A model generated the notes under the pieces. The model searched no databases. It saw only the letters and a list, made by a program, of their open reading frames with translations, and was not told the DNA's origin. A stretch of DNA of 64,000 bases. Origin: Chloroflexia bacterium (GTDB lineage: Bacteria; Chloroflexota; Chloroflexia; QHBQ01; JADMIH01). Location: the NCBI GenBank assembly GCA_035474135.1, contig DATINP010000044.1, forward strand, positions 4,295 through 68,294. Direction: 5' to 3'. Positions 3,327-61,475 of the stretch are shown here, piece by piece. The translations under genes were made by a program, and so were the position numbers. Within the stretch, counting starts at the first letter, position 1; every line of letters starts with the position of its first letter.

Positions 3327-3375
3327 GACGTGAAACGCAAAGATCGCAGAGAGCGCAAAGTTTTAAGAGGTCGGG

Positions 3376-3393
3376 TTTTTGTCGCGACAAAAA
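3376..3393. repeat. TTTTTGTCGCGACAAAAA perfect palindrome (copy 2)
   Basis: 18-bp perfect palindrome between aroA and aroE. Confidence 0.85.
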
Positions 3394-3394
3394 A

Positions 3395-3438
3395 GACGTA
3401 TGACGCATGACGCATGACGCATGACGCATGACGTATGA
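3395..3438. repeat. (GACGYAT)6 tandem heptamer array
   Basis: gacgtat gacgcat x4 gacgtat read directly. Confidence 0.9.
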
Positions 3439-3444
3439 GATACC

Positions 3445-4314
3445 ATGGCACCTGACGACCACCAAGACACATCAACTGTCACACATCACGTCGGCCTCAT
3501 CGGCTACCCCGTGGAGCACAGCCTGTCGCCCGCAATGCACAACGCAGCATTCACGCATTTGGGGTTGGAATACCGATATGTGCTATTGCCTACACCTCCT
3601 AGCGAGTTGGAGAGGCGCGTGAGAGAGTGCGTGGAGCGAGGGTTCGCGGGGTGGAACGTGACGGTACCCCACAAGGAGGGGATGGCACGAATGCTTGACG
3701 AGATGAGCGACGAGGTGAAGGCAACCGGCGCGTGCAACACTGTGCTGGTGGAGGGTGGCAAACTGCAGGGCTTCAATACTGACACAATAGGGTTTATACG
3801 AGGGCTAGAGGAAGCGGGCGGTATCTCGGCAGGCTCGAAGGCGGTCGTGCTGGGCGCAGGCGGGGCGGCGCGCGGCGTGGCGTGGGCATTGAGGCAAGCC
3901 GGGCACCGGGTGATTATTTTGTCGCGGAAGCCGGAGCAAGCGCGAGAGGTCGCCGAGGCTATAGGGGTAGAAGCCGGTCTGCTTGATGCGGAAACGCTAG
4001 AGGGCGAACTTGAAGTGGCGCAGCTACTCGTGAACTGCACGCCCGCGGGTATGTGGCCTCATGTGGAGGAGAGTCCTGTGCCGGACGGTGCGCGGATACC
4101 GGCAAACATGCTGGTGTACGACCTGGTGTACAGGCCAAGGCCGACATTGATGCTGCGGAAGGCGGCGGAGGCGGGCTGCCGTACGCAGAATGGGCTGGCG
4201 ATGCTGGTGTACCAGGGAGCAGCAGCGTTCGAAATATGGACGGGCCGTCCTGCCCCAATAGAGATGATGAGAAGGGCGTGCGTCAGGGGCGAGGGATTAG
4301 GGGTTAGGGGTTAG
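3445..4314 (+). CDS. aroE: shikimate dehydrogenase
   Basis: GLIGYPVEHSLSP, NVTVPHK, NTDTIGF, GAGGAARG motifs; C-terminal residues GLGVRG are encoded by the GGGGTTA heptamer repeat. Confidence 0.85.
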   Translation: MAPDDHQDTSTVTHHVGLIGYPVEHSLSPAMHNAAFTHLGLEYRYVLLPTPPSELERRVRECVERGFAGWNVTVPHKEGMARMLDEMSDEVKATGACNTVLVEGGKLQGFNTDTIGFIRGLEEAGGISAGSKAVVLGAGGAARGVAWALRQAGHRVIILSRKPEQAREVAEAIGVEAGLLDAETLEGELEVAQLLVNCTPAGMWPHVEESPVPDGARIPANMLVYDLVYRPRPTLMLRKAAEAGCRTQNGLAMLVYQGAAAFEIWTGRPAPIEMMRRACVRGEGLGVRG

Positions 4315-4368
4315 TAAGACGTCGTAAAACGCATAACTTCTAACACCTGACCCCTCACCCCTAACACC
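4287..4368. repeat. GGGGTTA-based composite inverted repeat
   Basis: ggggcgagggattaggggttaggggttag ... ctaacacctgacccctcacccctaacacc; left arm encodes the AroE C-terminus. Confidence 0.75.
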
Positions 4369-4389
4369 TACAGGAAGGATAACGCAACA

Positions 4390-5529
4390 ATGATACACAG
4401 GTTTCTTACGGGCGGAGAGTCACACGGGCCGGGGCTAACCACGATAGTGGAGGGGTTCCCGGCGGGGCTGGCATTGGACGTGGAGGCGATCAACCACGAG
4501 TTGACCCGTCGCCAAGGGGGCTATGGACGCAGCGGGCGCCAGCATATCGAGCGTGACGAGGTGCAGTTCTGGGGCGGAGTGGAGAATGGCGTCACCACAG
4601 GCGGGCCAATCGTCATGCAGATCGCCAACCGCGACTACGCCAACTTCATCAAGAAGGAGCACCCACGCCTCACCGCGCCACGGCCAGGCCACGCAGATCT
4701 CGTGGGGGCCATCAAGTATGGCTACAGCGACATGAGGACGGCGCTTGAACGCTCAAGCGCGCGGGAGACGGCGGCTCGAACAGCGACGGGCGCCCTCGCC
4801 AAGCAGTTGCTGGGGCAGTTCGGGGTGAAGGTGGGCAGTGTCGTCACAGAGATCGGGGGCGAACAGGCCGACGTGGACCTGTCGTCCCCGGAGTCGCTCC
4901 TGGAGGCCACAGAAGCCTCGCCCGTGCGGTGTCCTGATACGGAGGCCACGGAGCGAATGAAAGCGCGCATAGACTACGCCAGGCGCACCGGTGACACGTT
5001 GGGTGGGGTGTTCGTGGTGTGGGCGACAGGGCTTCCAATAGGGTTGGGAAGCTATGTGCACTGGGACCGCCGCCTCGACGGTCTGCTCGCGTGGGCGGTG
5101 ATGAGTATCCAGGCGATCAAGGGGGTGGAGATCGGCGAAGGCTTCGAGAACGCCCGCATGAACGGGCGGGACGTGCACGACCAGATTTATGTCGGCGAGC
5201 GGGGGTTGGAGAGGCACACGAACCGTGCGGGTGGGCTGGAAGGCGGCGTGACTAATGGGCAGCCGCTGATCGTGCGTGCCGCGATGAAGCCGATCTCTAC
5301 TACGATCAACCCGTTGCAGACGGTGGACGTGGCAACGGGCGAGGCGGCCAGCACGCAGTACCAGCGCTCGGACTTCTGCGCCGTGCCCGCAGCGGGCGTA
5401 GTGGGCGAGGCAATGGTGGCGTGGATACTGGCCGACGTGCTGCACGAGAAGCTGGGCGGCGACAGCCTGAGTGAGATGCGCGCACGGACGACGGACGACG
5501 GACGACCGACGACGGGCAGTGCCCGGTGA
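4390..5529 (+). CDS. aroC: chorismate synthase
   Basis: GESHGPGL, RRQGGYGRSGRQ, RPGHADL, SARETAART signatures; C-terminal TTDDGRPTTG is encoded by the left arm of a GGACGAC hairpin element. Confidence 0.9.
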   Translation: MIHRFLTGGESHGPGLTTIVEGFPAGLALDVEAINHELTRRQGGYGRSGRQHIERDEVQFWGGVENGVTTGGPIVMQIANRDYANFIKKEHPRLTAPRPGHADLVGAIKYGYSDMRTALERSSARETAARTATGALAKQLLGQFGVKVGSVVTEIGGEQADVDLSSPESLLEATEASPVRCPDTEATERMKARIDYARRTGDTLGGVFVVWATGLPIGLGSYVHWDRRLDGLLAWAVMSIQAIKGVEIGEGFENARMNGRDVHDQIYVGERGLERHTNRAGGLEGGVTNGQPLIVRAAMKPISTTINPLQTVDVATGEAASTQYQRSDFCAVPAAGVVGEAMVAWILADVLHEKLGGDSLSEMRARTTDDGRPTTGSAR

Positions 5530-5559
5530 CCAGCAGGCGTCGTCCGTCGTCCGTCGTCC
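5484..5559. repeat. (GGACGAC)n / (GTCGTCC)n hairpin element spanning the aroC-aroK junction
   Basis: Left arm acggacgacggacgacggacgaccgacgacgg, 22-nt loop, right arm cgtcgtccgtcgtccgtcgtcc. Confidence 0.85.
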
Positions 5560-6086
5560 GTCGTCCTACCAGGAATCTGGTGCTGGTAGGATTTATGGGC
5601 ACTGGCAAGACTACTGTGGGCGCGCTTGTGGCCGAGCGGCTGGGGTGGTCGTTCGTGGATACGGACGCACTGGTCAAGGTAGCGACGGGGATGTCCGTAG
5701 CCGAGATCTTCGCGACGCAAGGAGAGGTCGCGTTCCGAGCGCTGGAGAGAGAGGCGTGCCGGGAGGCAAGCGCACGCCAACACGTCGTTATAAGCGTGGG
5801 AGGCGGAGCCGTGATGGACCCGGAGAACAGGCGTGCGCTTGAAGCGAGCGGGATGCTTGTGCTGTTGACGTGCGAGCGCGACAGGCTGATCGAGCGATTG
5901 GAGGAGTCTGTGCGCCGAGGCGAGCGGCCCCTGCTTACCGGCGACATTGGGAAACGTATAGACACACTCGCCGCGAGCCGGGCGCAGGTGTATGGGTCAA
6001 TCGCGATGAAGGTGGACACTACGAGGCTGACGCCGGAAGAGGTTGTAGAGATTTTGGTCAGGGATTGTAACCCTTTACTCTCGTAA
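5526..6086 (+). CDS. aroK: shikimate kinase
   Basis: Walker A GFMGTGKTT and shikimate-kinase core; GTG start overlaps aroC stop; N-terminal [11 protein letters not shown] is encoded by the right arm of the hairpin element, so the true start is uncertain. Confidence 0.8.
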   Translation: MTSRRRPSSVVRRPTRNLVLVGFMGTGKTTVGALVAERLGWSFVDTDALVKVATGMSVAEIFATQGEVAFRALEREACREASARQHVVISVGGGAVMDPENRRALEASGMLVLLTCERDRLIERLEESVRRGERPLLTGDIGKRIDTLAASRAQVYGSIAMKVDTTRLTPEEVVEILVRDCNPLLS

Positions 6087-6097
6087 AAGGAAGCATT

Positions 6098-7234
6098 ATG
6101 CAGGACATACAAGCCGACACTATTCGAGTGCAGACGCTCGATGGAGGGTACGATATCGTGCTGGGGAACGGATTGCTTGAAAGTGTGGGAAGGCTGGCGA
6201 GCAAGTTGGGGCTGGGCCGGAGGGTGGTGGTCGCCAGCGACACAAATGTGGCTCCTCTGTATGCCGAGCGAGCTATCCAGCCGCTGAAAGGCGCTGGTTT
6301 CGACGCTACACTGGCGGTTATGCCTGCTGGCGAGAAGCATAAGCGGTGGCCGTCGGTCGAGATGTTCGTGGAGTCCTTTCTGGACGCTGGCCTCGACCGG
6401 GGAGGTTGGGTGGCGGCGCTGGGCGGGGGCGTGGTGGGCGACACTGCCGGGTTCGCCGCATCTGTCTACATGCGCGGGGTGGACTTTGTACAACTGCCAA
6501 CCAGCCTGCTGGCTATGGCCGATTCGAGCATCGGGGGCAAAGTGGGCGTGGACCACGAGCGTGGCAAGAACCTGCTTGGCGCGTTCAAACAGCCCCGACT
6601 GGTGGTGGCCGACCTGGACGTGCTGGCGACCCTGCCACAGAAAGAGGTCGCGTGCGGCATGGCCGAGGTGATCAAGGCAGAGGTGATAGGGGGAATTGAC
6701 GACGGACGACGGACGACAGACGACAGCAATCGACTAACGTCCTCGGTCGTCCGTCGTCCGTCGTCCGTCGTCTCTCCTACGATCTACGACTCGCTGCGCC
6801 GGGCTATCGAAGTGAAGCGAGGGATCGTGGAGCGCGACCCGCACGAGGCGGGGGAGAGGGCGCTGCTGAACCTGGGTCATACGTTCGGGCACGCTTTCGA
6901 GAAATGCACAGGGTATAATAGGCCTCACGGCTACGCGGTGGCGCAGGGGATGGTAGTGGCGTGCAGGCTGGCGGCGGCGCTCGGTATGTGCGACGAGGGG
7001 TTGGCTGAGAGCGTTGAGCGCGCGCTCGCAGCGTGGGACCTGCCCATCAGGTGGGGTGCGCCCGATCTTGAGGACGAGGGTGCTGTGGAGCGCGTGTGGG
7101 AGGCGATGAGGCTGGACAAGAAGCGCGTGGACGGGAGATTACGCTTGGTTTTGCCGGAGGCAATTGGCAGGGTGTGCATTGTTGACGATGCGCCCGAAGT
7201 TGTTATCAAGAGGGTATTGAGGGAGACGAAGTGA
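6098..7234 (+). CDS. aroB: 3-dehydroquinate synthase (carries an in-frame palindromic-repeat insertion)
   Basis: DHQS motifs [27 protein letters not shown]; residues DDGRRTTDD...[11 protein letters not shown] (nt 6698-6772) are encoded by a perfect heptamer hairpin element. Confidence 0.85.
6698..6772. repeat. (GGACGAC)n / (GTCGTCC)n perfect hairpin element inside aroB
   Basis: gacgacggacgacggacgacagacgac - 21-nt loop - gtcgtccgtcgtccgtcgtccgtcgtc; 75 nt, a multiple of 3. Confidence 0.9.
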
Positions 7235-17058: not shown

Positions 17059-18762
17059 CTATGTGATCTTCGGTACTGAGCGGCGCAGACACGCGAAGAA
17101 GTAGGCCATTTTATTCGTCAGGCCTATCGCGCCGTGCTTGCCCTGTCCTTCGCGCGTGGTACGCTTCGCAGTGTACATGAGGTCCACGAACGCCTCGGCT
17201 TGCAGCCCCGACGTGCGCCATAACCGCATTGCTTGGCCTACATTTTCCAGCACGTGATCAGCATCTCCCAGTTCGTATGAGAAGTCTGCAACTACCCTCG
17301 AGATAAAGGGCGAATAGGCCGGGTCGCGAGCTTCTCCGGGTTCGTTCCCAGAAGCCTTTTTGACCAAGTTATGACTCGAGTCAGCCTTCATAATTTGTTC
17401 TGGATGATCTGCTTCTATTTCGTGTTCACCGCGCGTCACCGGGGGCTGTGCACTGCCTGTCATGGGACGCGGTGTCTTCCGCTTTACAGGGGCTAGCAAC
17501 TGCGCGTCACCTGGGCGTGCATACTGTACGTCGTTGGGGCCTGTCAACTGTGCGTCACTACCCACCTTATACTGTACGTCACTGGTGGCAATAAACTGGG
17601 TGTCACCGGGAAGAGGATACTGTATGTCACCAGGGGGTGTATACTGCGCGTCACCGGGATGCGCATACCCGCCGTCACGACCCATTGTATGTATCTGTGC
17701 GCCTGCACGGTCGCGTCGAGCCTGTGCCGCGAGGCTGCCGCGACGGGCTTTCTTGACTGGAAGGGTCGTGCTTGCTTCCTGCAAAGCTCCTGCTGTAGCG
17801 TCGGCTTCTGTGTCGTCTCCGGTTGGGGTTTGTCCGTTCTTCCCCGGTTTGAGCAGGTTGCGGATCTCGTCCAAGAGGGGGCTGAAGTCGTAGGCGTTCG
17901 AGTCTTGCCCGCCGTCGCTCTTGGTGCGGCGTACCAGCCGAAGCGAGCCGCGCTCGACCAGTCCCGTCTTGATGCGGTGCAGATAGGCGGCTGTGTAACC
18001 CGTCTGCAAGGCCATACGCACTATGCTGGGATAGGGCAGGGATGTGTCCCACTGGTATGAGAAAATGTAGGCCACGAACCACACCTGCTGTGGGGTCATG
18101 TCCAGTTCTTTACTGTATGTAAACAGGGCGCGTGGCACCGCTGCCACTCCGTAGCGGGTCAGTACCCTGCCGTAGCGGGCCACAAAGCTTGGGTCGTGCT
18201 GGGCGCGCTCGATCTCTTCGATGCCGCGCTCGTACCCGTTCTCATGCCCGTTGCGTTGGGGGAAATCTGGGACGCGTGTGGGGTCGTAAATCGAGCTTAT
18301 GGGATTGCTGTTGATCCTGCTTTTGACGTGCTCGGTAATGCACGATTCGAGCCTCTCGAACAGGGCGGCGAAGTCGTAGTAGTTCGACTCTTGCCCGCGC
18401 TCCTGCGACCTCCTGGGCAGGACCAGCAGGTAGCCCATGCCCTGTAGCTCGTCGCTGTATCGTTGTAACTGCCTCTTGCTCATGCCCGATGCGCGGGACA
18501 TCACGCCCAGGCTGGGGTAGGGGAGGTCTTCGTCCCATTTATGTGACAGGATGTAGGAGATGAACCATACATGCTGGGCGTAGAGGTCGAGCTTACCACC
18601 GAAGTGGTACAGCGCCGACGGCAGGGCCGCGATCCCGTGTTGCAGGATCACTCTGCCGAAACGCGCCGCGAAGCTATTGCCTGTCCCGGCAAAGGTGCCC
18701 GGGTTGACCTCTATATCGCCGTTTTGTCCTACCCTGCCCCTCTGTTCTATATTTTTGGGCAT
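17059..18762 (-). CDS. putative replication-initiator-like DNA-binding protein with tandem winged-helix domains and an octapeptide repeat
   Basis: Two roughly 110-aa paralogous domains (ARFGRVILQHGIAALP... and ARYGRVLTRYGVAAVP..., each ending SN.YDF); 8 x (xGDxQYxx) repeat; GGAGG RBS 8 nt upstream of ATG at 18762. Confidence 0.45.
   Translation of the reverse strand: MPKNIEQRGRVGQNGDIEVNPGTFAGTGNSFAARFGRVILQHGIAALPSALYHFGGKLDLYAQHVWFISYILSHKWDEDLPYPSLGVMSRASGMSKRQLQRYSDELQGMGYLLVLPRRSQERGQESNYYDFAALFERLESCITEHVKSRINSNPISSIYDPTRVPDFPQRNGHENGYERGIEEIERAQHDPSFVARYGRVLTRYGVAAVPRALFTYSKELDMTPQQVWFVAYIFSYQWDTSLPYPSIVRMALQTGYTAAYLHRIKTGLVERGSLRLVRRTKSDGGQDSNAYDFSPLLDEIRNLLKPGKNGQTPTGDDTEADATAGALQEASTTLPVKKARRGSLAAQARRDRAGAQIHTMGRDGGYAHPGDAQYTPPGDIQYPLPGDTQFIATSDVQYKVGSDAQLTGPNDVQYARPGDAQLLAPVKRKTPRPMTGSAQPPVTRGEHEIEADHPEQIMKADSSHNLVKKASGNEPGEARDPAYSPFISRVVADFSYELGDADHVLENVGQAMRLWRTSGLQAEAFVDLMYTAKRTTREGQGKHGAIGLTNKMAYFFACLRRSVPKIT
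17487..17680. repeat. 8 x 24-bp tandem repeat inside the Rep-like gene (iteron-like; encodes xGDxQYxx)
   Basis: Each unit ends ACTG(Y)(R)(Y)GTCAC with exact 24-bp period (GTCAC ends at 17510, 17534, ... 17678). Confidence 0.8.
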
Positions 18763-18781
18763 AGAAAACCTCCTGTACCCC

Positions 18782-18810
18782 TTGACAGGAGGATGGCCCG
18801 GTGCTACAAT
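18782..18810 (+). promoter_or_regulatory. consensus sigma70-type promoter (TTGACA-17-TACAAT)
   Basis: TTGACA 18782-18787, 17-nt spacer, TACAAT 18805-18810; points away from the Rep-like gene. Confidence 0.55.
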
Positions 18811-18816
18811 GCTTTT

Positions 18817-18909
18817 GAGCATACATTGTGCCGGTGATCCTCCTCCCAAGAGGGCCACACCGACGGAATCTTCAAAGCCTGACTGTTACCAGCAGTCGGG
18901 TTTTTATTT
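18817..18909 (+). ncRNA. putative small RNA of about 90 nt (promoter plus terminator defined), divergent from the Rep-like gene
   Basis: Consensus promoter at 18782-18810 and an 8-bp-stem hairpin followed by TTTTTATTT at 18878-18909; no ORF in between. Confidence 0.4.
18878..18909 (+). terminator. rho-independent terminator
   Basis: CCTGACTG/CAGTCGGG stem (one G-U pair), 7-nt loop, then TTTTTATTT. Confidence 0.6.
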
Positions 18910-23295: not shown

Positions 23296-23350
23296 GAGTT
23301 CTGAGTTCTGAGTTCTAGGGTAAACTTCTTTGTCGCTACAGAAATCGCGT
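23296..23350. repeat. (GAGTTCT)3 array plus degenerate TTTGTCGCTACAGAAA palindrome
   Basis: gagttctgagttctgagttct aggg taaacttctttgtcgctacagaaatcgcg. Confidence 0.75.
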
Positions 23351-25391: not shown

Positions 25392-25401
25392 GTGTACCTC
25401 C

Positions 25402-25495
25402 GGAGTTCTGAGTTTTGAGTTCTGAGGGATTAGGGGTTAGTGATTCGTTATGCGTGGTCGGTCGTCGGTCGTCGGTCGTCCTCCTAACCCCTACG
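25402..25495. repeat. composite heptamer element: (GAGTTCT)3 + (GGGGTTA)2 + (GGTCGTC)3-4 + CCTAACCCCTAC
   Basis: Read directly between the cupin and Mo-subunit genes. Confidence 0.8.
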
Positions 25496-27733
25496 TCACG
25501 TGAGTTGTTCCCCTGAAGTGGCCCTGGGGAGGGGCATCTCGCGCATCACGTCCAGGGTGAGGGGAGTGCCTTCGGGGGCTAGCTCTACCTGTACTGCGCA
25601 CACCTTGTATTCCGGTATACGGCTCAGTGGGTCGAATGCGCGGATCGTTAGCTGGTTGGCTGACTGCTTGCCGCCCCAGTGATAGGGGATGAAGACGGTG
25701 TCGGGGCGAATGGCGCGGGTGATCTTGCCCGGCACCACTATCTCGCCACGGCGGCTGCGCACGCGCACGGGGTCGCCGGCCTTGATGCCGAGCTTCTTCG
25801 CCGTCAGAGGGTGAAGCTCCACGTACGGCTCAGGCGCGTTCTCTACCAGCGTACCGATGCGCCGCGTCTGGTTGCCGCTCAGGTAGTGGAAGATCAGGCG
25901 TCCGGTCGTGTAGAAGAAGGGGTACTCCTCGTCGGGCACCTCGGCGGGGGGCTTGTAGGGCAGGGCGTGGAAGACAGCTTTGCCGTCGGGGTGGTAGAAG
26001 CGGTCCTCGAACAGGCGCGGGGTGCCTTTGCTCTCCAGTGTAGGGCAAGGCCAGAATACGCCGTCCTGCTCGTCTATCTTCTCGTAGGTAATGCCGTAGT
26101 AATCAGCCTTGCCCCCCTTTGAGGCCAACCGAAGCTCGTCCCAGATATCGCGGGCCGACTTGTAGGGGAACTGCTCGGCGTGGCCCAGGCGAGCCGCCAA
26201 GTCGCAGATGATCTCCCAGTCTACTCGCGCCTCGCCGGGAGGATCGGAGGCCTTATTGATCTTGATCACGCGCCCCTCGACGTTGGTGGTTGTGCCTTCA
26301 TCCTCGGCCCACACGCTGCCCGGCAGTACGATGTCGGCCAACTGCGCGCTCTCCGACATAAAGAAGTCGATCACAGCATACATATCGAGCGACAACAGTG
26401 CCTTCTTGATCGTGCCGATGTCGGGCAGAGACACCATGGGGTTACTGCAGATCTGCAACATGGCGCGGATCTCGCCCTTAAGGATAATGCCTATCTGGTC
26501 GGTGATGGCGTAGCCTGCCGGGGGGAAGTCTTCGGGCTTGAGACCCCAGATGCCGCCCACGTACTCACGCGCTTCGGGGTCGTCGTACTTGCGCTGGCCG
26601 GGCAGTTGGTCGGCCTTCTGGCCGTGTTCGCGTCCTCCCTGCCCGTTGCCCTGTCCCGTGAGCGTGCCGTAGCCGCAACCCGGCCTGCCGATGCGCCCAC
26701 TCGCGAGCACCATGTTGATATAGGAGAGGACGTTGTTCACTCCGTTGGTCGAGTGCTCAATGCCACGGGCGTGCATAAGGAAGCTGGTTTTGGCAGTGCC
26801 CCAAAGCTCAGCGGCCTCCTCGATACGCGCCGCCGGGATGCCGCACAGCACGGCCACCTTCGCGGGGGTGTACGCGCTCACCAGCGCGGCTAGTTCGTCG
26901 AAGCCGTTGGTGCGCGTGTTGATAAAGTCGTGGTCCAGCCAGTCGTGCTTCACCATCTCGTGTACGATGGCGTTGCCGAGGGCCGTGTCGGTGCCGGGCC
27001 TGATCTGGAGGTGTATGTCGGCTGTGCGGGCCGCGGGGGTCACTCGCGGGTCTACCATGATCAGTTTGCCGCCGCGGTCACGCGCTTCCCAGATGTAGGG
27101 CATGGTGAGTGGGTGGCACTCTGCCGTGTTGGTGCCCGCGGCGAAGATCACCTCGGCCAGCGCAATGTCGCTCCAGGGGTTGGCGGCGCGGTCCACACCG
27201 AAAGCCTTGTTGTTACCATAGGCTGCGCTCACCATGCACAGCCGCCCATTATAGTCCACGTTGCCCGTTCCCACCGCCACGCGAGCAAACTTGCCCATCA
27301 GGTAGGTCTTCTCGGTGGTAAGCGAGCTTCCTGAGTAGATGCTCACCGCGTTCTGGCCATACTTGGCGCGGGTCTCGCGGAAACTGCGTGCTATGGCGTC
27401 CAGAGCCTCGTCCCAGGTACAGCGTTCGAGTGGACTGTTCTTACCGCCCTTGCGCATCATGGGGTAGGTGAGGCGCTGAGGGTGGTTGACCTGCTGGTAA
27501 GCGGTGACCCCTTTGGGACACATCCGTCCCTTGTTTACCGGGAAGTCGCGCGCCTCAACCCCGAACACCTTTCCTTCGGCATCCACCTTCAGGTACATGC
27601 CACATTGCATCCCGCAGTAGGAACAATGGGTGGGCACCAACCTGATGCTTTCCGTGGTGCTCCACTCGGCAGTAGGCGCGTCGTACACCGACGTCAATTC
27701 GCCTTCGTCGGTTCTCTTCATAACGTCAGTCAT
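25496..27733 (-). CDS. molybdopterin (Mo-bisPGD) oxidoreductase catalytic subunit, cytoplasmic NasA/NarB/Fdh-like
   Basis: N-terminal C-x2-C-x3-C-x27-C FeS motif (CSYCGMQCG...CPKG), MGD-binding domains, no Tat signal. Confidence 0.7.
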
Positions 27734-27744
27734 GTCAATACCTC

Positions 27745-27840
27745 AATTCTGAGTGCTGAGTGACCAGTGCGTCATACGTTGTCAGTCGTCGGTCGTCCCG
27801 ACTTACGATCTAAGATCTATGATCTAAGATCTTAGACTCC
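27745..27840. repeat. composite element: GAGTGCT/GAGTGAC, GTCGTCG units and (GATCTAA)-type palindromic array
   Basis: ctgagtgctgagtgaccagtgcgtcatacgttgtcagtcgtcggtcgtcccgacttacgatctaagatctatgatctaagatcttagac. Confidence 0.75.
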
Positions 27841-29032: not shown

Positions 29033-29100
29033 AAGCGCTGTCGCGACAATAAAGTGATTGTCAGCCGACCAGTTGGTCACGTATCACCTGTGACCCATTG
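29033..29100. repeat. GCTGTCGCGACAATAAAG palindrome copy plus GGTCAC-N9-GTGACC inverted repeat in divergent promoter region
   Basis: tgtcgcgaca core at 29036-29045; ggtcacgtatcacctgtgacc at about 29076-29096. Confidence 0.6.
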
Positions 29101-29368: not shown

Positions 29369-30511
29369 ATGCTCAGTGATATTCTCATTTCGCCGATAAC
29401 CCAGTTACTGCTCTTGTTGACCGTCTCATTGTTGGTGCGCCGGCTGTGGCTTCAGCCTGCCGAGCCTCCCACCGCAGCAGGCGCGCCCGTCATGGCTGTG
29501 GGCATCTTTGCGCTTGCCGCCCTTCAGAAGTTACCGGGGCCTGTCGAGCCGGTTACCCGTCTGCTGTGCCTCGAACTGGTACTGGTCTGGCTCTATATAG
29601 GCGGTGGCCTGCTGGCATCGTATCGTCGCGGCACTTTTCACGTTCACACCGATGACCCGGTCGGCCTCTTCGCTATAGGCACATGGGTGGCCGCCACATC
29701 GACTCTGGGCACCCTCGTGGGCATGGCCTTCCCCGAGTGGGACGTGCTTGTGGCGTTCATGGGCGTGCTCATGGTGGCAATGTGGGTCTGGTATATCACG
29801 TTGATCATGCCCGCGTTTCGACAGTTGTTCACCCCTGGCGGCAATCGCCCTGTTACCGGGCGTATCCTCCTCGCCACTGTCGCCACGCAGTCTCTGATTG
29901 TGCTGTGGGCGGCGGTCTATCCTCATACGGTTATAACGTGGCTGGCGCAAGGCGTAATAGCTCTAGGCATCCTGTTCTATCTGCTCGGCTTCGTGCTGCT
30001 CGTCCGGCGGTATGTTGGCATGCGCGGCTGGAGCCTGGCCACCGACTGGGATAACACCAACTGCATCATCCACGGCGCGATGTCTATCACGGGCAATGCG
30101 GCACTCCGCAGTGGTGTCCTCCCACCCGAGATCGTGATCGCCATCTGGCTGTGGACCGCTCTCATGTTCGTGCTGGTGGAGGGGGTAGAGATTGTGCGGC
30201 TGGTCGTGCGCGTGAGACAGTATGGGTGGGGGCAGGGCGTGTTCAGCTACAACGTCTCCCAGTGGGCGCGCAACTTCACCTTCGGTATGTTCTATATTTT
30301 CACTCTCCTTTTGCAGTCGCACCTGGGCGCACACGAGGTGGGCCTGCCTTTGCTCGTAGCGATACAGGACGTCATAGTAGCCTGGGGCCAGTATGTGGTG
30401 CTATTCATGCTGGCAGTAGAGGTATTCATCTTTCTACTCCGTAGCGCTGGTCTGAGGCTCCAGGCGAGGGCGTCCAGCAACAGACAACGAACCGTGGCGC
30501 CGACCGTCTAG
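29369..30511 (+). CDS. polytopic membrane protein (TDT/TehA-like transporter?)
   Basis: 380 aa, about 10 TM helices; weak resemblance only. Confidence 0.35.
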   Translation: MLSDILISPITQLLLLLTVSLLVRRLWLQPAEPPTAAGAPVMAVGIFALAALQKLPGPVEPVTRLLCLELVLVWLYIGGGLLASYRRGTFHVHTDDPVGLFAIGTWVAATSTLGTLVGMAFPEWDVLVAFMGVLMVAMWVWYITLIMPAFRQLFTPGGNRPVTGRILLATVATQSLIVLWAAVYPHTVITWLAQGVIALGILFYLLGFVLLVRRYVGMRGWSLATDWDNTNCIIHGAMSITGNAALRSGVLPPEIVIAIWLWTALMFVLVEGVEIVRLVVRVRQYGWGQGVFSYNVSQWARNFTFGMFYIFTLLLQSHLGAHEVGLPLLVAIQDVIVAWGQYVVLFMLAVEVFIFLLRSAGLRLQARASSNRQRTVAPTV

Positions 30512-31698
30512 CTTTGAGCGTCGCCTGTTTGGCTGGTTTCGTGCGCGATGAAAGTTTGCTTGCGGCCGGTGGCGGCGCGTGCGCCCGACAGTACGGCGAG
30601 GCCCGTGTTGCCCATGAACAACAACAGGGCGAACACACTCAAGAGGCCGCCCCACTGTCTGCCGTCCACCCAACCCAGCAAGTCGCTTGCCACGCGCAAG
30701 GCTAGAGCGGTATGCAGAAGCGCGAGGTGCGCGTAGAAGGCTTGTCTGTAAGGGACGCTCAGCCCGGTCACTGCGGGCAATATAATGGGAGCGTGAGCGA
30801 AGATCATAGACATTACGAAGCCCAGGAAGATCGAGTGCAGGAGGGCATCGTAGCGCGGACCTGCCGTGACCGCGCCGAACGCCAGAGCCAGCCCTCCCGC
30901 CACCAGCATCCAGGCGTAGCCCGCCAGCAGTCCTGTCGCGATGTAGCGGGTGAGGCCCTGGCCGCGCACGGTGCGGCGCGCGATATCGTAGCGCCCCAGC
31001 CACAGCGCCAGCGCCACCAACCCTACGCTCATAAGCCGGGTGCCCGCGTCCTGCCAGGGTACAGAGGTCGCCAATCCCCCTAAGAACACCGCTATTGCGG
31101 CCATGAACAGGGGACTGCTCGCGAGCGACCGTGGCAGCATCCGCGTCAGTTCCAGCCGCTCGCCTGCTATCGTTAGGATCAGGAAGCCCGCCCACCAGAG
31201 CGAGGTCTGGTAGATGGGCAGCCACACCAGCCACAGGATGTTACCGCACGCCCACACTACCGCGCCCAGAGCCATGGTCGCGATAAAGAGGGTGGGCTGT
31301 ACACGCAGCACCGACACATAAAGGACCACCAGCGTGATACTGCTCAGAGTAAGCAGCACAGGTCCGACGATCCCCAGTGGGTAAGGCATACCGAGCAGAA
31401 CCAGGAGCGCCACCACGCCTAGAGCACTCAACGCCGGTGCGACATATCCCCAGCCCTTACGCAGGGCCACAGCCCTCTCAAGGCCGATCACAGTGCCGAG
31501 AAAGCCGCCCACCATGAGCGCGCCATGCGCCCCGGGCAGAGTCGGGTTCAGCATGGGCAGGCTAAAGCCGAGCCGCATCAACCCGGCCCACATGGCCGCT
31601 ACCAGGGCGATCATGCCAAGTCCCATGAGTGGGAACCGCAAATGTGAAACGGTCATTGAAGTCCTTCTGGGGGAGAGGGGCGAGACATGATGCGTCAT
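30508..31698 (-). CDS. nnrS: NnrS-family membrane protein (NO-response)
   Basis: About 390 aa and 12 TM with conserved His; positioned directly downstream of nirK as in many denitrifiers. Confidence 0.5.
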   Translation of the reverse strand: MTHHVSPLSPRRTSMTVSHLRFPLMGLGMIALVAAMWAGLMRLGFSLPMLNPTLPGAHGALMVGGFLGTVIGLERAVALRKGWGYVAPALSALGVVALLVLLGMPYPLGIVGPVLLTLSSITLVVLYVSVLRVQPTLFIATMALGAVVWACGNILWLVWLPIYQTSLWWAGFLILTIAGERLELTRMLPRSLASSPLFMAAIAVFLGGLATSVPWQDAGTRLMSVGLVALALWLGRYDIARRTVRGQGLTRYIATGLLAGYAWMLVAGGLALAFGAVTAGPRYDALLHSIFLGFVMSMIFAHAPIILPAVTGLSVPYRQAFYAHLALLHTALALRVASDLLGWVDGRQWGGLLSVFALLLFMGNTGLAVLSGARAATGRKQTFIAHETSQTGDAQS

Positions 31699-31735
31699 GC
31701 GCTATGCGTCATGCGTCGTCTTAGTAACCCCTCGC
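31684..31735. repeat. (ATGCGTC)n array (reverse orientation of the GACGCAT family) plus TAACCCC unit
   Basis: gacatgatgcgtcatgcgctatgcgtcatgcgtcgtcttagtaacccctcgcc. Confidence 0.75.
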
Positions 31736-36167: not shown

Positions 36168-37052
36168 ATGCTGAAAACTGACGCCACACCGCAGGCGGCA
36201 CGACGGGACGACCGGCTATACCTGGGTGCGCCACCAATACCCGACGATCATGGTGCCTACGCCATGCTTCTCCTGCCCATGGTGATAGGCTTCATACTGG
36301 GCATCGTGCGCGGCGTCGCGCCTTCAGCCGGAGCGTTGGAAGTGGCCATGGCCTGCGTGCTGTTCGCGGTGGCGCTGGTGGCGCTCTTCTTCGCCAGTGA
36401 GCCTCTTAGCGTGGCGTTCAAGCCAAAGGCGAGCACGGGTGCCCGACGTAGGGCCGCGCGCTGGCTGGCGATCTACCTCGCGGTAGCAGCGTGTGCGGGC
36501 GCACCTCTGCTGTTCGTGTGGGGGTTGTGGGGGTTGCGCTGGTTCCTGGTGGTGGCGGGCGTATTGATGCTGGCGTTCCTGGTTGCCGTGAAGATGCGGA
36601 AACAGCGCAGTATGGCCCTGCGCCTGCCCGGCATCCTCTGCCTGACGTTAAGCGGTCCCGCCGCCTATTACGTCACGACGGGCAGGCTCGACGCCCAGGC
36701 ATGGGGGCTGGGAGTGGCGTGCGCGGTGTACTTCGTGGGCACGATCTTCAACGTGCGCGCCTGGTTTGAGATCAACCGCCAGAAGAAAAGTGGCATATCG
36801 CCCACACGTCTACCTGGCTGGCTCGTCACTGCGATCTGGCTGTACCTCGCGGGCGGAGCGCTTGCGGTCGCACTCACCGTATTGGCGGACGCGCTCCCGT
36901 GGGCCGCTTACATCGCGCTGGTGCCCTCGCTGCTCCGCGCCATCTGGACTCTATGGAGCACCCCCGCCCACATCCCTATCAAGCGCATCGGCCTGATAGA
37001 GTTCGCACAGAGCTTTGCCTTTGCCATTCTGCTGGTGGCTGTGATGGCTTAG
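36168..37052 (+). CDS. hypothetical membrane protein (YwiC-like?)
   Basis: 294 aa, about 8 TM helices. Confidence 0.4.
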   Translation: MLKTDATPQAARRDDRLYLGAPPIPDDHGAYAMLLLPMVIGFILGIVRGVAPSAGALEVAMACVLFAVALVALFFASEPLSVAFKPKASTGARRRAARWLAIYLAVAACAGAPLLFVWGLWGLRWFLVVAGVLMLAFLVAVKMRKQRSMALRLPGILCLTLSGPAAYYVTTGRLDAQAWGLGVACAVYFVGTIFNVRAWFEINRQKKSGISPTRLPGWLVTAIWLYLAGGALAVALTVLADALPWAAYIALVPSLLRAIWTLWSTPAHIPIKRIGLIEFAQSFAFAILLVAVMA

Positions 37053-37075
37053 GGATCTTAGATCTTAGATCGTAA
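37050..37075. repeat. (GATCTTA)n palindromic array
   Basis: agggatcttagatcttagatcgtaag. Confidence 0.7.
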
Positions 37076-39451: not shown

Positions 39452-39725
39452 ATGTTCTCTTGCCCTTCTTTATATCGTAGCACGATATTCCTTCAATAGC
39501 ATACAGGACGAATACCTGCCTTGTCAACGTGGCCGGGATGGTTCGTAGCATGTAAGTCACCAGTCGTGCCTCACCTTAGGCATCGCCGCCGGTCGCCCGA
39601 AACTGTGCCCGAAAGGACTACACAAAATATGTCCCGTTTTGCCTACCATACGTCATTAAGATAGTAGAACACTTATCAAGCACGACGTATGACGTATTAC
39701 GTCCCGCCCCTGTTATAATGTCCCC

Positions 39726-40268
39726 ATGAAACGCATGATCGCTTTTCTGCGCGCCATCAATGTTGGCGGGCACACCGTCAAGATGGACCGCCTGCGAGCA
39801 CTTTTCGAGGAAATGGGGTTTTCTAATGTGGAGACCTTCATCGCGAGTGGTAACGTTATTTTCGAGGCTCCCTCGGGGGATGCACGTACGCTTGAAGAGA
39901 GGATCGAGAAGCACCTGAACGAGGCGCTGGGATACAAGGTGGCGACTTTCCTGCGCACCTCAACCGAACTGGTCGCCGTCGCAGACCATCATCCCTTCCC
40001 CGACGAGGATGCTTCGCAAGAGGGTACGATCTACGTGGCGTTTCTACCGAGCGCACCCAACAAAGAGGCCCAAGAAAAGCTGATGGCCTTACGGACACCT
40101 GCCGACGACTTCCACGTCCACGAGCGCGAGATCTACTGGCTGTGTCGCACGAGGATGAGCGAGTCGGCGTTCTCGGGTGGCCTGCTCGAAAAGACTATAG
40201 GTCTGCCCGCGACTATGCGCAACATCAGCACAGTCAGCAAGTTGGCCGCGAAGTATGGTGAGGGGTAG
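39726..40268 (+). CDS. DUF1697-domain protein
   Basis: MIAFLRAINVGGHTVKM N-terminus typical of DUF1697. Confidence 0.7.
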   Translation: MKRMIAFLRAINVGGHTVKMDRLRALFEEMGFSNVETFIASGNVIFEAPSGDARTLEERIEKHLNEALGYKVATFLRTSTELVAVADHHPFPDEDASQEGTIYVAFLPSAPNKEAQEKLMALRTPADDFHVHEREIYWLCRTRMSESAFSGGLLEKTIGLPATMRNISTVSKLAAKYGEG

Positions 40269-43715: not shown

Positions 43716-44942
43716 CTAGCGGTCAAACGTCACAAGGTATCGAATAGTCTGCTGCGCGGGCGAGTAAATTACGAATTCATCGTTTAGAAGTGTCTGCTGC
43801 GCCTGCGCTGCAAGCCGGGTGTGTCCAGCCTTGCCCCACACCGAATCATATCCTCGCGGCGGCTCCTTCACTTGCGCTGTGGGCGCTTCGTATCGCTTGC
43901 CCAGGGCGGCCTCCACGACCAGCAGCATTTTCGGCACGTCCCGCTTGCTTGACGAGCAGTAGTTGGTGCTCTTGGTAGATTTGTTGGCTAGATAGATACC
44001 ATTGCCCAGCATGCGCCCGTTAGAAGGGGCTTTGGGGCAGATCAGCCCTGAGCGCAGGATATGGCGCACGTTGCGCGTATGTGTGCCGTGAAAGAGTAAC
44101 TCGCGGTGGGATGTGCCGCGCTTGTTCGCCTCGTAAGCGCTGCGCTCGGCCGGTATCTCCACCTCGAACACGTCGCGCACTTTTATTTCGTAGCCGTGGG
44201 CCTGTGTGCGCTTGATGTAGTCGAGGAGGGATACGCGCACCTCATCCTCTGCACTGAGCACGGCCAGCCGCGCCCCCAGCATCTGGTAGCGAGTGTGGTT
44301 GGGGTGCAGGCGCTTCTCCTTCAAGGTAGAGATAGCGGCCTCCAACTGGTTGAGGCGCTCTTCCTGCTCGGAGAACTCGTTGCAGAAGCGCTTCACGACC
44401 TCCTCGCGGTCAATACGCGCGGGAAGGCGCGTGGGTATCGAATTATAGTAGGCCTGGATGGTGGCGGACAATGACTCCAGATTCTGTTCGCGCCTGAACG
44501 GGTTGATGCGATAGTGGAGGAGTTGGTTCTGCGCCTGCGCGAGCAACCTTCTCCCTTCAGCCACTTGCGCCTGGCTGAGCGCGTCGACAGGCACCGCCAG
44601 GTATGATTGGATGTGCTCACCCGCTTCCGAGAACACCCATTCCACCAACTGTGAAATAGTAGGGTGGATCTGTGGGACGTTCGCGTCCGGCTGGCTTCCC
44701 GCCGTGCTATCGGAGTCTGCCGCAGGTTCGTGTAGCTCTACCCGGCGATAGCCCTTGCGCACCTTCTCGCCGATTTGCCGCTCTACCTCGCGCCTTGTAG
44801 CCGACTTTTCCTTAACCTGCGGTTTGGTGCCCACCCGGCCCCACGTGGCACGAAAGAGTACACTGCCGTCCTGTTGTGGCCAAAGCTCGACCATGTAGAA
44901 CTTGTTGTGGTTGTCCGTAAGGTCCGTTAGCTGGTACATCAT
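43716..44942 (-). CDS. bacterial poly(ADP-ribose) polymerase homolog (WGR domain plus PARP catalytic domain)
   Basis: WGR signature NKFYMVELW...ATWGRVGT; catalytic H-Y-E positions (LLFHGTHTRNV, GNGIYLANKSTKSTNYC, LNDEFVIYSPAQQTIRYL) align with PARP1; ORF track extends to 45068, MMYQL start preferred. Confidence 0.75.
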   Translation of the reverse strand: MMYQLTDLTDNHNKFYMVELWPQQDGSVLFRATWGRVGTKPQVKEKSATRREVERQIGEKVRKGYRRVELHEPAADSDSTAGSQPDANVPQIHPTISQLVEWVFSEAGEHIQSYLAVPVDALSQAQVAEGRRLLAQAQNQLLHYRINPFRREQNLESLSATIQAYYNSIPTRLPARIDREEVVKRFCNEFSEQEERLNQLEAAISTLKEKRLHPNHTRYQMLGARLAVLSAEDEVRVSLLDYIKRTQAHGYEIKVRDVFEVEIPAERSAYEANKRGTSHRELLFHGTHTRNVRHILRSGLICPKAPSNGRMLGNGIYLANKSTKSTNYCSSSKRDVPKMLLVVEAALGKRYEAPTAQVKEPPRGYDSVWGKAGHTRLAAQAQQTLLNDEFVIYSPAQQTIRYLVTFDR

Positions 44943-45198
44943 ACGCTCGGCGGGCGCGTCGGTATTCGGCGAGGTAGAGATCGCGTCGGGTTGGGTGGGA
45001 TCACTGCCCGTCTGTTGCGTGGTCACAAGGCCTCCTTTGTGGCGATTGCTTGGTGGCGGATGTGGCACAGGGTTCTGCTGATTACCTCTATATTTTACTC
45101 GATTTTTTGATTGACGGGGCGAACCGCGCGTGCTACGATATTGTTGTGTGAAGCATCAATAGCGTGGGTGCGCGTTCATCCAGCAGCCCAGGAGAGAC

Positions 45199-47629: not shown

Positions 47630-47715
47630 ATCCTTCTGCTTCCTTCGTGTGCTTCGTGCCCTTCGTGATCCTCGTGTCCCATATTCACTTGCCACGCGTG
47701 ACGCATGACGTAAGA
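47630..47715. repeat. (CTTCGTG)4 array plus GACGCAT units
   Basis: ccttcgtgtgcttcgtgcccttcgtgatcctcgtg ... cacgcgtgacgcatgacgtaag. Confidence 0.75.
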
Positions 47716-49950: not shown

Positions 49951-49969
49951 GTCGTTGCCTCCGAGTGAC

Positions 49970-50059
49970 GAGGGGCGAGGGGTTAGGGGTTAGCAGAGAT
50001 ATGATGCGTCATACGCGTTTCGTCGGTCGTCGTACTAACCCCCAACCTCTCGCCCCTCG
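49970..50059. repeat. large composite palindrome: GGGGTTA arms enclosing GACGCAT and GTCGTCG units
   Basis: gaggggcgaggggttaggggttag ... atgatgcgtcatacgcgtttcgtcggtcgtcgtac taacccccaacctctcgcccctc. Confidence 0.8.
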
Positions 50060-50346
50060 TTAGCGAAGCGCCACCATCTCTCGAAGCGGGCTTGGTCCCA
50101 GGGGTCGAACACGATGGCTTGCATGTGGTATACGAGCGTGGGGGTGATCTGATAGCCGCCCGTCACGAACTCGACACCCTGTGCTGCCGCTTCGTCCTGC
50201 TCGATGTCCACCTCTTCGTATTCTATCTGCTCGGCCTTGAAATAGGCCACTGCCGCATCGCTGTCCTCGCACCATGAGCGCCTGTAAATTACTATCGGTC
50301 CCGACTGCATTTCTTCTCCCTGGTTGGTCGTGATTAGTGACGACAC
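50035..50346 (-). CDS. glutaredoxin-like (monothiol C-x2-S) protein
   Basis: IVIYRRSWCEDSDAAVAYF thioredoxin-fold N-terminus. Confidence 0.5.
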   Translation of the reverse strand: MSSLITTNQGEEMQSGPIVIYRRSWCEDSDAAVAYFKAEQIEYEEVDIEQDEAAAQGVEFVTGGYQITPTLVYHMQAIVFDPWDQARFERWWRFANEGREVGG

Positions 50347-50429
50347 GCGTCATGCGTCATCGCCTCGTAATCCCACGTGAACTTCATGATCCATCTTCGT
50401 TCGCCATGCATGACCCGTCACGCCGTCCA

Positions 50430-51902: not shown

Positions 51903-51920
51903 GTTTGTATCTCCAGGAGT

Positions 51921-52043
51921 GGGTGATCGGTGACCGGTGAGCGGTGACCAGGGACCAGTGACCAGTGACCAGTGACCAGGGTTAGTAGGACAACAGATGA
52001 CGTATCACGTATCACTACTGGCCACTGGTCACTGGTCACTCAC
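51921..52043. repeat. (GTGACCR)n / (TGGTCAC)n long hairpin element
   Basis: About 8 GTGACC-type heptamers at 51921-51979, 40-nt centre, (CTGGTCA)3 at 52019-52043. Confidence 0.85.
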
Positions 52044-53722: not shown

Positions 53723-53988
53723 AGATCTTAGGTCTAAGTCATGAGCTATGCATGACTTGTCCTGTATTGAAGGTTGGGTAGTTGATACTAACAGTATACA
53801 TCCGTTGGGGATGGCGAACGAGGAAGGGGAGGTCAGAGACCCGGCTATACGTTGACGTGACCACATCGTCTGGTGTGAAGTGGGCCTTTCTGTTATGATT
53901 TTGCTGACTAGTGGATCACTTGTGGCGTATGACGCATGACATACGAGCTGCGGCTTCTATTTTCTCCCAGAAAGACAGGTACAACTAC

Positions 53989-58770: not shown

Positions 58771-58789
58771 TTGGTTGCTCCGAGGGGCG

Positions 58790-58880
58790 TAGGTCGTGCG
58801 TCATGAGTAATTCTCTTTTGTCGCGACAAAAGAGCGCCTAGCTTATACAGAACAAGTTCTCATGACATATGACGTATGGC
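58790..58880. repeat. composite: GACGCAT-type units flanking a perfect 22-bp palindrome CTCTTTTGTCGCGACAAAAGAG
   Basis: Palindrome at 58813-58834; flanks cgtcatgag ... ctcatgacatatgacgtatg. Confidence 0.85.
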
Positions 58881-58887
58881 CGCGCAC

Positions 58888-61392: not shown

Positions 61393-61406
61393 TTGTTAGT
61401 CCTCCC

Positions 61407-61475
61407 GTGTGAGTGAGTCGTAGATCTTCGATCGCAGATCGTAAGTCATGAGTGATGAGTGGCGAGTGATACGCC
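61407..61475. repeat. composite: GAGTGAT-type units plus GATCT palindromic stretch
   Basis: gtgtgagtgagtcgtagatcttcgatcgcagatcgtaagtcatgagtgatgagtggcgagtgatacgcc. Confidence 0.65.

Follow-up and report, generated by a model that had tools for sequence, protein, structure and literature searches.

The stretch analysed here (64 kb of contig DATINP010000044.1 from a Chloroflexia bacterium; hereafter the window) carries elements built from tandem 7-nt units at 16 of its 63 gene junctions, plus one palindrome within the coding sequence (CDS) of the shikimate-pathway gene aroB. Our best reading is that they are a lineage-specific family of heptanucleotide repeats, of the short tandemly repeated repetitive (STRR) or long simple sequence repeat (SSR) type, in a clade of uncultured soil Chloroflexia. 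Many arrays are accompanied by an inverted copy and thus form long near-perfect DNA palindromes. Comparison with relatives shows that over short evolutionary distances arrays come and go, change length by multiples of 7 and switch from one unit to another. A first-pass annotation of the window had placed such elements in at least 15 intergenic gaps; the count is about right, but several arrays overlap gene ends and the aroB palindrome (6698-6772) lies inside a gene.

Period-7 arrays and palindromes in the window

Tandem arrays with periods of 3-14 nt were sought by a lag-identity scan of the whole window, with 20 dinucleotide-preserving shuffles as the baseline. At period 7 it found 13 arrays, or 16 once the cut-off was lowered slightly, where the shuffles averaged 0.1. 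Every other period gave 0-2 arrays, so the enrichment is limited to period 7. As an outside control we used 1.33 Mb of DNA from 80 unrelated bacterial aroB loci, mostly of Proteobacteria, which held four period-7 arrays (about 3 per Mb), roughly 70-fold fewer per base than the window. Individual units are also over-represented. Allowing up to two mismatches, dimers of GACGCAT match 13 times (0.9 expected), those of GGACGAC 16 times (0.66 expected) and those of GTGACCA eight times (0.54 expected). The first-pass description of STRR-like arrays that combine as modules and are often palindromic is borne out, and the arrays are strongly non-random. All the units that it named are present, but Tandem Repeats Finder (TRF) assigns CTTCGTG a period of 9 nt.

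Junctions, stops and starts were placed on a gene map of about 65 open reading frames (ORFs) made within the analysis. Elements occupy 11 of 39 co-directional junctions (28%), 3 of 12 divergent ones (25%) and 2 of 12 convergent ones (17%). At least eight unit types are present. Read on the sense strand, elements range from lone arrays to composites with up to five unit types, and many arrays stand alone without an inverted partner.

The showcase element (51903-52043, minus strand) consists, in sense order, of (GTGACCA)x3, a 42-nt centre with two ACGTGAT units, (TGGTCAC)x8, a Shine-Dalgarno (SD) sequence and an ATG. The TGA stop (52040-52042) of a thiamine pyrophosphate (TPP) enzyme gene falls in (GTGACCA)x3, and the ATG belongs to a cytochrome b561/Mo-oxidoreductase gene. 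TRF calls (GTGACCA)x7.1 at 51930-51979, (ACGTATC)x2.3 at 52000-52015 and the inverse (ACTGGTC)x3.4 at 52017-52040, in agreement with the first-pass account of 51921-52043 as direct and inverse units around a centre.

Hairpin significance was assessed by comparing the fold energy at each locus with 200 shuffles. Five loci are long near-perfect palindromes, with energies of -41 to -67 kcal/mol: 4283-4375 (-41.4 kcal/mol, z -5.2), 5478-5570 (-67.2, z -7.0), 6690-6795 (-61.6, z -6.8), 49962-50065 (-57.3, z -8.1) and the showcase (-62.6, z -5.3). At none of the five was any shuffle as stable. The expectation that such elements form hairpins therefore holds at these loci, but not at 25392-25497, where the fold is non-significant (z -1.2). 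Stems on the antisense strand are as stable as those on the sense strand or more so, there is no G.U signature, and the mismatch in the aroB stem is an A.C on the sense strand. The equal antisense stability and the A.C mismatch point to a palindrome at the DNA level and argue against selection on RNA. We rejected RNA-level selection on the hairpins, the sense strand having no stability advantage.

The composites are real, and the two that had been cited as examples (25402-25495 and 49970-50059) are both present as claimed. Their modules are not freely shuffled, however. The order GGGGTTA arm, GACGACC array, ACGCAT(AAC), TAACCCC arm is common to the elements beginning at 4283, 25392 and 49962, always in one sense orientation, and the core of the composite at 27734 resembles theirs.

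Arrays are also placed and oriented with respect to genes. At least 12 contain the actual stop codon of the upstream gene, and a stop codon within an array unit is likewise found in the relatives L002, L146, L147, L148, L149 and L150. An array often begins within the final codons of the gene before it, whose stop is then provided by the unit. All seven GACGYAT loci have the array in sense orientation, no more than about 50 nt from a predicted start; ORF calling accounts for part of this proximity, since the unit itself contains ATG. Seven palindromes have arms that differ in G and C, and all seven place the G-rich arm 5' in the sense reading. Units containing [AGT]TGA occur in 16 of 49 arrays read in sense and in 8 of 49 read in antisense, against a random expectation of 6%.

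Turnover among relatives and residence in genes

The aro loci of six relatives (L001, L002, L146, L147, L148 and L149, from NCBI metagenome-assembled genomes (MAGs) and JGI samples; aroB 62-78% identical) show the same period-7-specific enrichment, with 2-9 arrays in each 8-21 kb. Their units are only partly those of the window and include AGTGATA, GACGACA, GATTTTG, AGTACCG, GAATTGC and others. The genes aroA and aroE overlap by 4-8 nt in L002, L146 and L147. The same junction is a heptamer-filled spacer of 118 nt in the window and of 160 nt in L149, with differing units, and a 317-nt spacer in L148, where AGTGATA/CACTTAT arrays at the flanks enclose an unrelated inverted-repeat element. At one orthologous position in the aroE-aroC spacer, (CACGTAT)x3 in L002 corresponds to (CACTTAT)x3 in L148, the change being concerted across all copies.

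The element enclosed in L148 (5298-5614) resembles a miniature inverted-repeat transposable element (MITE), with terminal inverted repeats of about 25 nt (GTCATYCTGARCGWAGYGAAGRATC and its reverse complement). It recurs in L147 (7992-8400), in both cases in aro-operon spacers, and is distinct from the heptamer arrays. The 233-nt spacer between aroC and the aroKB fusion of L149 (9768-10000) is of another kind, with (AACGTTRG)x11, of 8-nt period, and a terminal inverse AACGTTCT array. The same architecture thus also exists with an 8-nt unit.

Two relatives are syntenic around the showcase (L150 and L151; TPP enzyme 88-89% identical). In both, the spacer between the TPP-enzyme and Mo-oxidoreductase genes is a unique, non-repetitive 134 nt that is conserved between them, and the showcase is absent. 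The spacer between the 834-aa gene and the gene for the GT20 glycosyltransferase is 16-22 nt in these two relatives and 117 nt in the window, where the element at 58771 fills it. The sole window element with an ortholog in L150 is the GGGGCGA/GGGGTTA element at the glutaredoxin 3' end, inside which the L150 contig ends. In a relative at 98% identity, gene coordinates alone give a TPP-to-Mo-oxidoreductase spacer of 116 nt instead of 137 nt, a difference of 21 nt or three units. No target-site duplication was seen at the filled and empty junctions compared, which are too diverged to judge. No period-7 array was found in 63 metagenome loci retrieved with the Mo-oxidoreductase; the 83%-identical L083 is not syntenic and so gives no information on the showcase.

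Some arrays lie in frame within genes, and these have only stop-codon-free units or orientations. The 75-nt aroB palindrome (6698-6772) encodes roughly residues 201-226. Where the window has four GACGACG units and an inverted array, L002 has two of these units, and L001 and the protein P0002 (89-93% identical to the window protein) have a GTCATRC array and an expanded TACGATC array. Between relatives the TACGATC copies number 2 versus 3.5. An AlphaFold2 model of the window aroB product is confident overall (mean predicted local distance difference test score, pLDDT, 82.9; predicted template modelling score 0.83), with residues 201-226 modelled as coil at pLDDT <50 between helices 181-198 and 227-246. 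In L149, aroA carries an in-frame (GATTTTG)x4-loop-(AATCCAA)x4.5 of 69 nt that adds 23 residues to 5-enolpyruvylshikimate-3-phosphate (EPSP) synthase. In L148, aroK and aroB are fused through a linker in which a heptamer array (CCGTGGT/CCGTCGT) lies, a hint that neighbouring genes can become joined by arrays free of stops. Fusions of shikimate kinase and 3-dehydroquinate synthase were seen in L148 (7766-9490), L149 (10001-11746) and the proteins P0004, P0006-P0009 and P0011.

A search with translated (GACGACG)n peptides returned only 15 proteins (P0241-P0255), all 'hypothetical proteins' of 47-74 aa. One of them (P0243), from another Chloroflexia MAG, spans both arms of a GACGACG...CGTCGTC palindrome. 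These are probably spurious genes called over arrays, and the small yield indicates that long GACGACG arrays are rare in public data.

Individual elements and their surroundings

The first four elements lie on the plus strand in the shikimate operon. A (GACGYAT)x6.3 array in sense orientation (3395-3438) ends 6 nt 5' of the aroE start and is preceded by the palindrome TTTTTGTCGCGACAAAAAA. The composite hairpin at 4283-4375 reads GGGGCGA/GGGATTA/(GGGGTTA)x2, GACGTCG, ACGCATAAC and a degenerate TAACCCC arm, and its 5' arm includes the aroE stop TAG (4312-4314). At 5478-5570, (GGACGAC)x4 and (GTCGTCC)x4 flank a 23-nt loop. This loop holds the predicted overlap (GTGA) of the aroC stop with the aroK GTG start, and the arms are the predicted C-terminal tail of aroC and N-terminal tail of aroK. 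The aroB element (6690-6795) is an in-frame palindrome of (GACGACG)x4, a loop and (CGTCGTC)x4.5, followed by (TACGATC)x2.

The next four elements are on the minus strand and are given in sense order. In a minus-strand operon, (CAGAACT)x3 (23296-23316) lies 14 nt 5' of the next gene start. Between the Mo-oxidoreductase and cupin genes, the composite at 25392-25497 reads GGGGTTA, (GACGACC)x3, ACGCATAAC, TAACCCC, (TCAGAAC)x3 and SD. That at 27734-27840 reads (TTAGATC)x4, GACGACC x2, GACGTATGACGCA, TGGTCAC and TCAGNAC x2, the first unit including the TAA stop (27810-27812) of the upstream gene. A (GACGCAT)x4 array (31690-31717) abuts the predicted start of gene 30508-31698. Between convergent genes, (GATCTTA)x2.6 (37045-37075) has a degenerate first unit that holds the TAG stop of 36168-37052.

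On the plus strand again, (GACGTAT)x2.7 (39684-39702) lies 23 nt 5' of gene 39726-40268 and adjoins a TGTTATAAT box. This box (39703-39728) is extended -10-like, and 7 nt separate its end from the ATG of the DUF1697 gene, a spacing that suggests a leaderless transcript. A 9-nt-period CCTTCGTGN array followed by GACGCAT x2 (47642-47713, plus strand) lies 5' of a deoxynucleoside kinase gene. The composite hairpin at 49962-50065 (minus strand) has GGGGCGA/GGGGTTA arms around GACGACC and GTATGACGCAT, and one arm holds the final codons and TAG stop of the glutaredoxin gene. About 45 nt 5' of the likely start of that gene is a sense-strand GACGCAT x2 (50345-50360, minus strand) that is absent in L150 and L151. 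At higher coordinates than the showcase come a sense-strand GRCGYAT x2 at the 5' end of the aconitase ORF (53924-53937, plus strand), an imperfect hairpin with ATGACGT-type arms (71% complementary) around a TTTTGTCGCGACAAAA core (58771-58887, minus strand) and, in the divergent region 5' of the 834-aa gene, a mixture of degenerate units of the GAGTGAT and TACGATC types (61393-61470).

A second kind of palindrome, perfect and composed of a T-run, GTCGCGAC and an A-run (TTTTTGTCGCGACAAAAA), is intergenic in the window and in three relatives. Often it adjoins heptamer arrays and sits downstream of aroQ. In the window it is found at 3375-3394 and 58811-58832, with a partial copy at 29036-29052; in the relatives it is found at about 5724-5742 in L001, 3228-3246 and 5457-5475 in L002, and 275-293, 1972-1990 and 9991-10009 in L148. 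The 1.3 Mb of control DNA holds a single copy of its core TGTCGCGACA. The palindrome might serve as an operator or as a terminator-like site acting in both directions.

The window has a GC content of about 60%, and the closest homologs of two of its genes are from Chloroflexota/Chloroflexia MAGs and soil metagenomes. Its aroB product matches at 100% identity a protein annotated as coming from a Chloroflexia bacterium MAG. A cyanobacterial origin was ruled out, as the HIP1 octamer count in the window is 0 and the homologs are from Chloroflexia. Nothing is unusual about the genes next to the elements, which comprise the shikimate operon, an operon of Mo-oxidoreductase/Fe-S/Rieske type, and genes for the TPP enzyme, aconitase, glutaredoxin and GT20 glycosyltransferase. 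Rfam covariance models gave no match at gathering thresholds in the entire window, which also has no tRNA gene; tRNA-linked elements and known RNA families were rejected on these grounds.

The gene at 43716-45068 (minus strand) encodes a bacterial protein with WGR (Pfam E 1e-10) and poly(ADP-ribose) polymerase catalytic (7e-33) domains. Between about 11492 and 19700, where GC is lower (0.55-0.58), lie genes for ParB, a Bro-N protein and a ParA-like ATPase with a helix-turn-helix, and several ORFs without a Pfam match. This block may be an integrated mobile element. The ORF at 17059-18858 has a tandem repeat of 24-nt period (17595-17668). No period-7 array was scored between about 7.7 and 23 kb of the window.

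Known families, origin and significance

Mazel and colleagues reportedly described STRR in heterocystous cyanobacteria in 1990. The consensus units of STRR1-3 are CCCCAGT, TTGGTCA and CAACAGT. Cyanobacterial STRR resemble the window elements in having tandem 7-nt units of several types per genome that are dispersed and mostly intergenic. No window unit equals an STRR1-3 consensus (the nearest is TGGTCAC against TTGGTCA), the host belongs to another phylum, and the arrays here are commonly paired as palindromes and also lie in frame in genes. The Calothrix report on STRR is cited in PMC4692102.

The annotation's statement that the elements cannot be assigned to a described repeat family stands in part. 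Long SSRs with a heptanucleotide unit have been described as a class that many bacterial genomes contain in excess (Mrazek et al., 2007, summarised in PMC4679880 and PMC4692102). The class comprises over-represented tandem repeats with units of 5-11 nt, 7 nt being dominant, mostly in non-coding DNA, and the window arrays fit it. Length variation between close relatives and an explanation by slippage are also part of that account as summarised; copy-number change here is seen in the 21-nt spacer difference (from coordinates only), in 2 versus 4 GACGACG units and in 2 versus 3.5 TACGATC units. Composite palindromes, conserved module order and coding insertions are not covered in that statistical account as the citing papers give it.

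Other heptamer repeats are comparable in part. Within the class Chloroflexia, Chloroflexus aurantiacus is reported to have 22 scattered satellites derived from (GATAGRA)n (PMC6749651). They likewise place a heptamer repeat at many loci, but one unit is reported there, whereas here there are at least eight, with inverted pairing and modular composites, and no unit is in common. TAACTGA direct repeats occur in marine Beggiatoaceae, cyanobacteria and Bacteroidetes; in Microcystis they stand among other heptamers. They share the fixed orientation just 5' of starts, the stop-containing unit and the absence from neighbouring relatives, but have a single dominant unit and one indirect repeat in 170 sets (PMC4679880). 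The G-rich repeats GGGAATC (Xanthomonas) and GGGGA(C/T)T (Nostoc), comparable to GGGGTTA here, occasionally form inverted pairs and vary in length and sequence among close relatives (PMC4692102). That work centres on G-quadruplexes, which most window units cannot form. Published examples of mixed heptamer assemblages and of inverted pairs come from Microcystis, Elizabethkingia and Xanthomonas (PMC4679880, PMC4692102).

Palindromic families differ from the window elements in their arms. Repetitive extragenic palindromic (REP) sequences, bacterial interspersed mosaic elements (BIMEs) and REP doublets forming hairpins (REPINs) are intergenic inverted doublets with long hairpins, often internal to operons (PMC3116915). 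The inverted doublet forming a hairpin is found here at five loci (z -5 to -8). REPIN arms, however, are conserved, non-repetitive sequences of about 16-35 nt linked to a gene for a REP-associated tyrosine transposase (RAYT), whereas the arms here are SSR arrays that vary by locus. Rickettsia palindromic elements sit in frame in unrelated housekeeping genes, where they are tolerated as peptide segments, as in the in-frame palindromic insertions here, but they are dispersed copies of about 150 bp with a conserved peptide and no 7-nt tandem units (PMC10969869). A literature search found no paper on tandem heptanucleotide repeats and Chloroflex* jointly. As far as could be found, repeats of this kind have not been described as routinely paired into long palindromes whose modules keep one order, as drawing on a large unit set within one genome, or as residing in frame in essential genes and fusion linkers.

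We consider it probable, with modest confidence, that the elements are SSR arrays driven by slippage and duplicated in inverted form at the DNA level, which selection filters at gene boundaries and protein loops and whose effects are incidental. Arrays would grow and shrink by slipped-strand mispairing in replication, and the inverted partner would arise by template switching or fold-back synthesis. They may be seeded where coupled genes overlap in an RTGA stop/start, since duplicating 7 nt there would harm neither protein. Selection would act only on where they persist: in untranslated spacers, at the ends of genes to which the unit lends a stop or start codon, and in surface loops when the array length is a multiple of 3. 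As selection would filter only these sites, the elements would be mostly neutral or selfish. Incidental effects are probable, the elements being hairpins transcribed within operons and added stretches of peptide, and would include REP-like barriers to decay, uncoupled translation, fused genes and additional disordered loops.

The seeding idea was tested with composition-matched exact 21-mers (a heptamer three times) in viral contigs (IMG/VR). GTGACCA gave 20 matches, about nine of them apparently from one related group, and ATGACCG gave 3, CTGACAG 6, GAGTCCA 4, GACTGCA 2 and GACGCAT 1. A general preference for RTGA was not evident in this small test. Every heptamer tried occurs 1-20 times as a triplet, so heptamer arrays are widespread, often with several unit types per contig. 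The 20 contigs with (GTGACCA)x3 (L154-L173) are viral or proviral and range from 32 to 74% GC. Several carry many different heptamer arrays (10 in L158) or inverted pairs (L159, L169), and the group of about nine has a common GAATTCC array about 200 nt away.

Several observations weigh against slippage as the whole explanation. Local slippage leaves it unexplained that unlinked loci and different genomes share units (GACGCAT at six window loci and in L001; GACGACN, GGGGTTA and AGTGATA). Nor does slippage account for the one module order of three composites, or for the orientation bias of GACGYAT (sense and start-proximal, 7/7) and of the G-rich arm (5', 7/7). Shared-unit dispersal and orientation bias keep a mobile or enzymatic mechanism in play, at a low probability.

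A role for the elements as terminators had been suggested in the first-pass annotation. No element has a T-run after its stem, a terminator scan picks up none of them, and convergent junctions are not preferred (2/12); the combination of GC-rich stem and U-tract that marks an intrinsic terminator is found at no window element. A conserved RNA role fares no better, as elements are missing at orthologous sites of the 88-89% relatives and antisense stems are equally stable. Together, the strand-neutral stems, the lack of T-runs, the even use of junctions and the orthologous absence argue against a conserved terminator or structured-RNA function.

We think a broader role in mRNA unlikely. Elements similar to REP or BIME would be selected to set the differential mRNA stability or translation of neighbouring cistrons; GACGCAT arrays, in one form of this idea, would be strings of 5-codon mini-ORFs, each overlapping the next at ATGA, that hand ribosomes on to the start that follows. 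A similar proposal was made for the Beggiatoaceae TAACTGA repeats (PMC4679880), and such a role would fit the very stable hairpins, the 11 of 16 elements between co-directional genes, the stop codons held in at least 12 arrays and the sense enrichment of [AGT]TGA units (16/49 versus 8/49 antisense). It would also fit the GACGYAT arrays, sense-oriented and up to about 50 nt from a start at all seven loci, a proximity that is partly produced by ORF calling. The absence of elements from orthologous junctions of 88-89% relatives and the presence of other units in closer ones are hard to reconcile with it, as are the lack of a sense-strand preference in stability, the lack of a G.U signature and the same palindromes inside coding sequences. 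The RTGA-triplet test in viral contigs gave no clear preference either.

Slightly more doubtful is a non-autonomous mobile family (MITE- or REPIN-like), whose composites would be copied whole by a trans-acting enzyme encoded elsewhere and remodelled afterwards by slippage. The shared module order and sense orientation of three composites, the identical units at unlinked loci and across genomes, and the presence or absence of elements at orthologous sites would fit such copying. The CDS insertions resemble Rickettsia palindromic elements, and the GACGACG...CGTCGTC palindrome is also found in the other Chloroflexia MAG, annotated 'hypothetical protein'. Yet the arms are variable-copy SSRs and not conserved termini, many arrays have no inverted partner, and in-situ changes of copy number and unit are directly visible. 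No transposase or RAYT is present among the roughly 65 ORFs of the window, and no target-site duplication was seen beside inverted arms at the compared junctions, which are too diverged for a judgement.

Equally speculative is a new self-propagating repeat type, in which a trans-acting activity would make a small set of genome-specific heptamers into palindromic composites oriented with transcription. Seeded at RTGA overlaps, these would colonise operon junctions and protein loops of soil Chloroflexia and create fusions and peptide segments. Least plausible are binding platforms for a protein of single-stranded or duplex nucleic acid, one protein per unit (cold-shock-like), or non-B DNA such as G-quadruplexes at GGGGTTA, for while the unit set is limited and recurring, 4283-4314 has four G-runs and related proposals exist for GGGAATC/GGGGAYT repeats and CspB-heptamer binding (PMC4692102, PMC4679880), most GGGGTTA arrays have fewer than four G-runs, the sites are not conserved at orthologous positions, and at least eight unrelated units per 64 kb with a different set per relative would need many specificities.

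Period-7 repeats are the commonest class of long SSR in bacteria. In practice, such arrays break assemblies, as in L150, and lead gene callers to small spurious ORFs and misplaced starts or stops; they could serve as strain-typing markers. This clade offers unusually clear material: one genome has many units, orthologous junctions are found both filled and empty between genomes 88-98% related, arrays have palindromic partners and keep strictly to a sense-strand orientation, and copies lie in frame in essential shikimate-pathway genes and an aroK-aroB fusion linker. It could be used to test whether slippage alone suffices or a dispersal mechanism is needed, and how protein segments are born from repeats.

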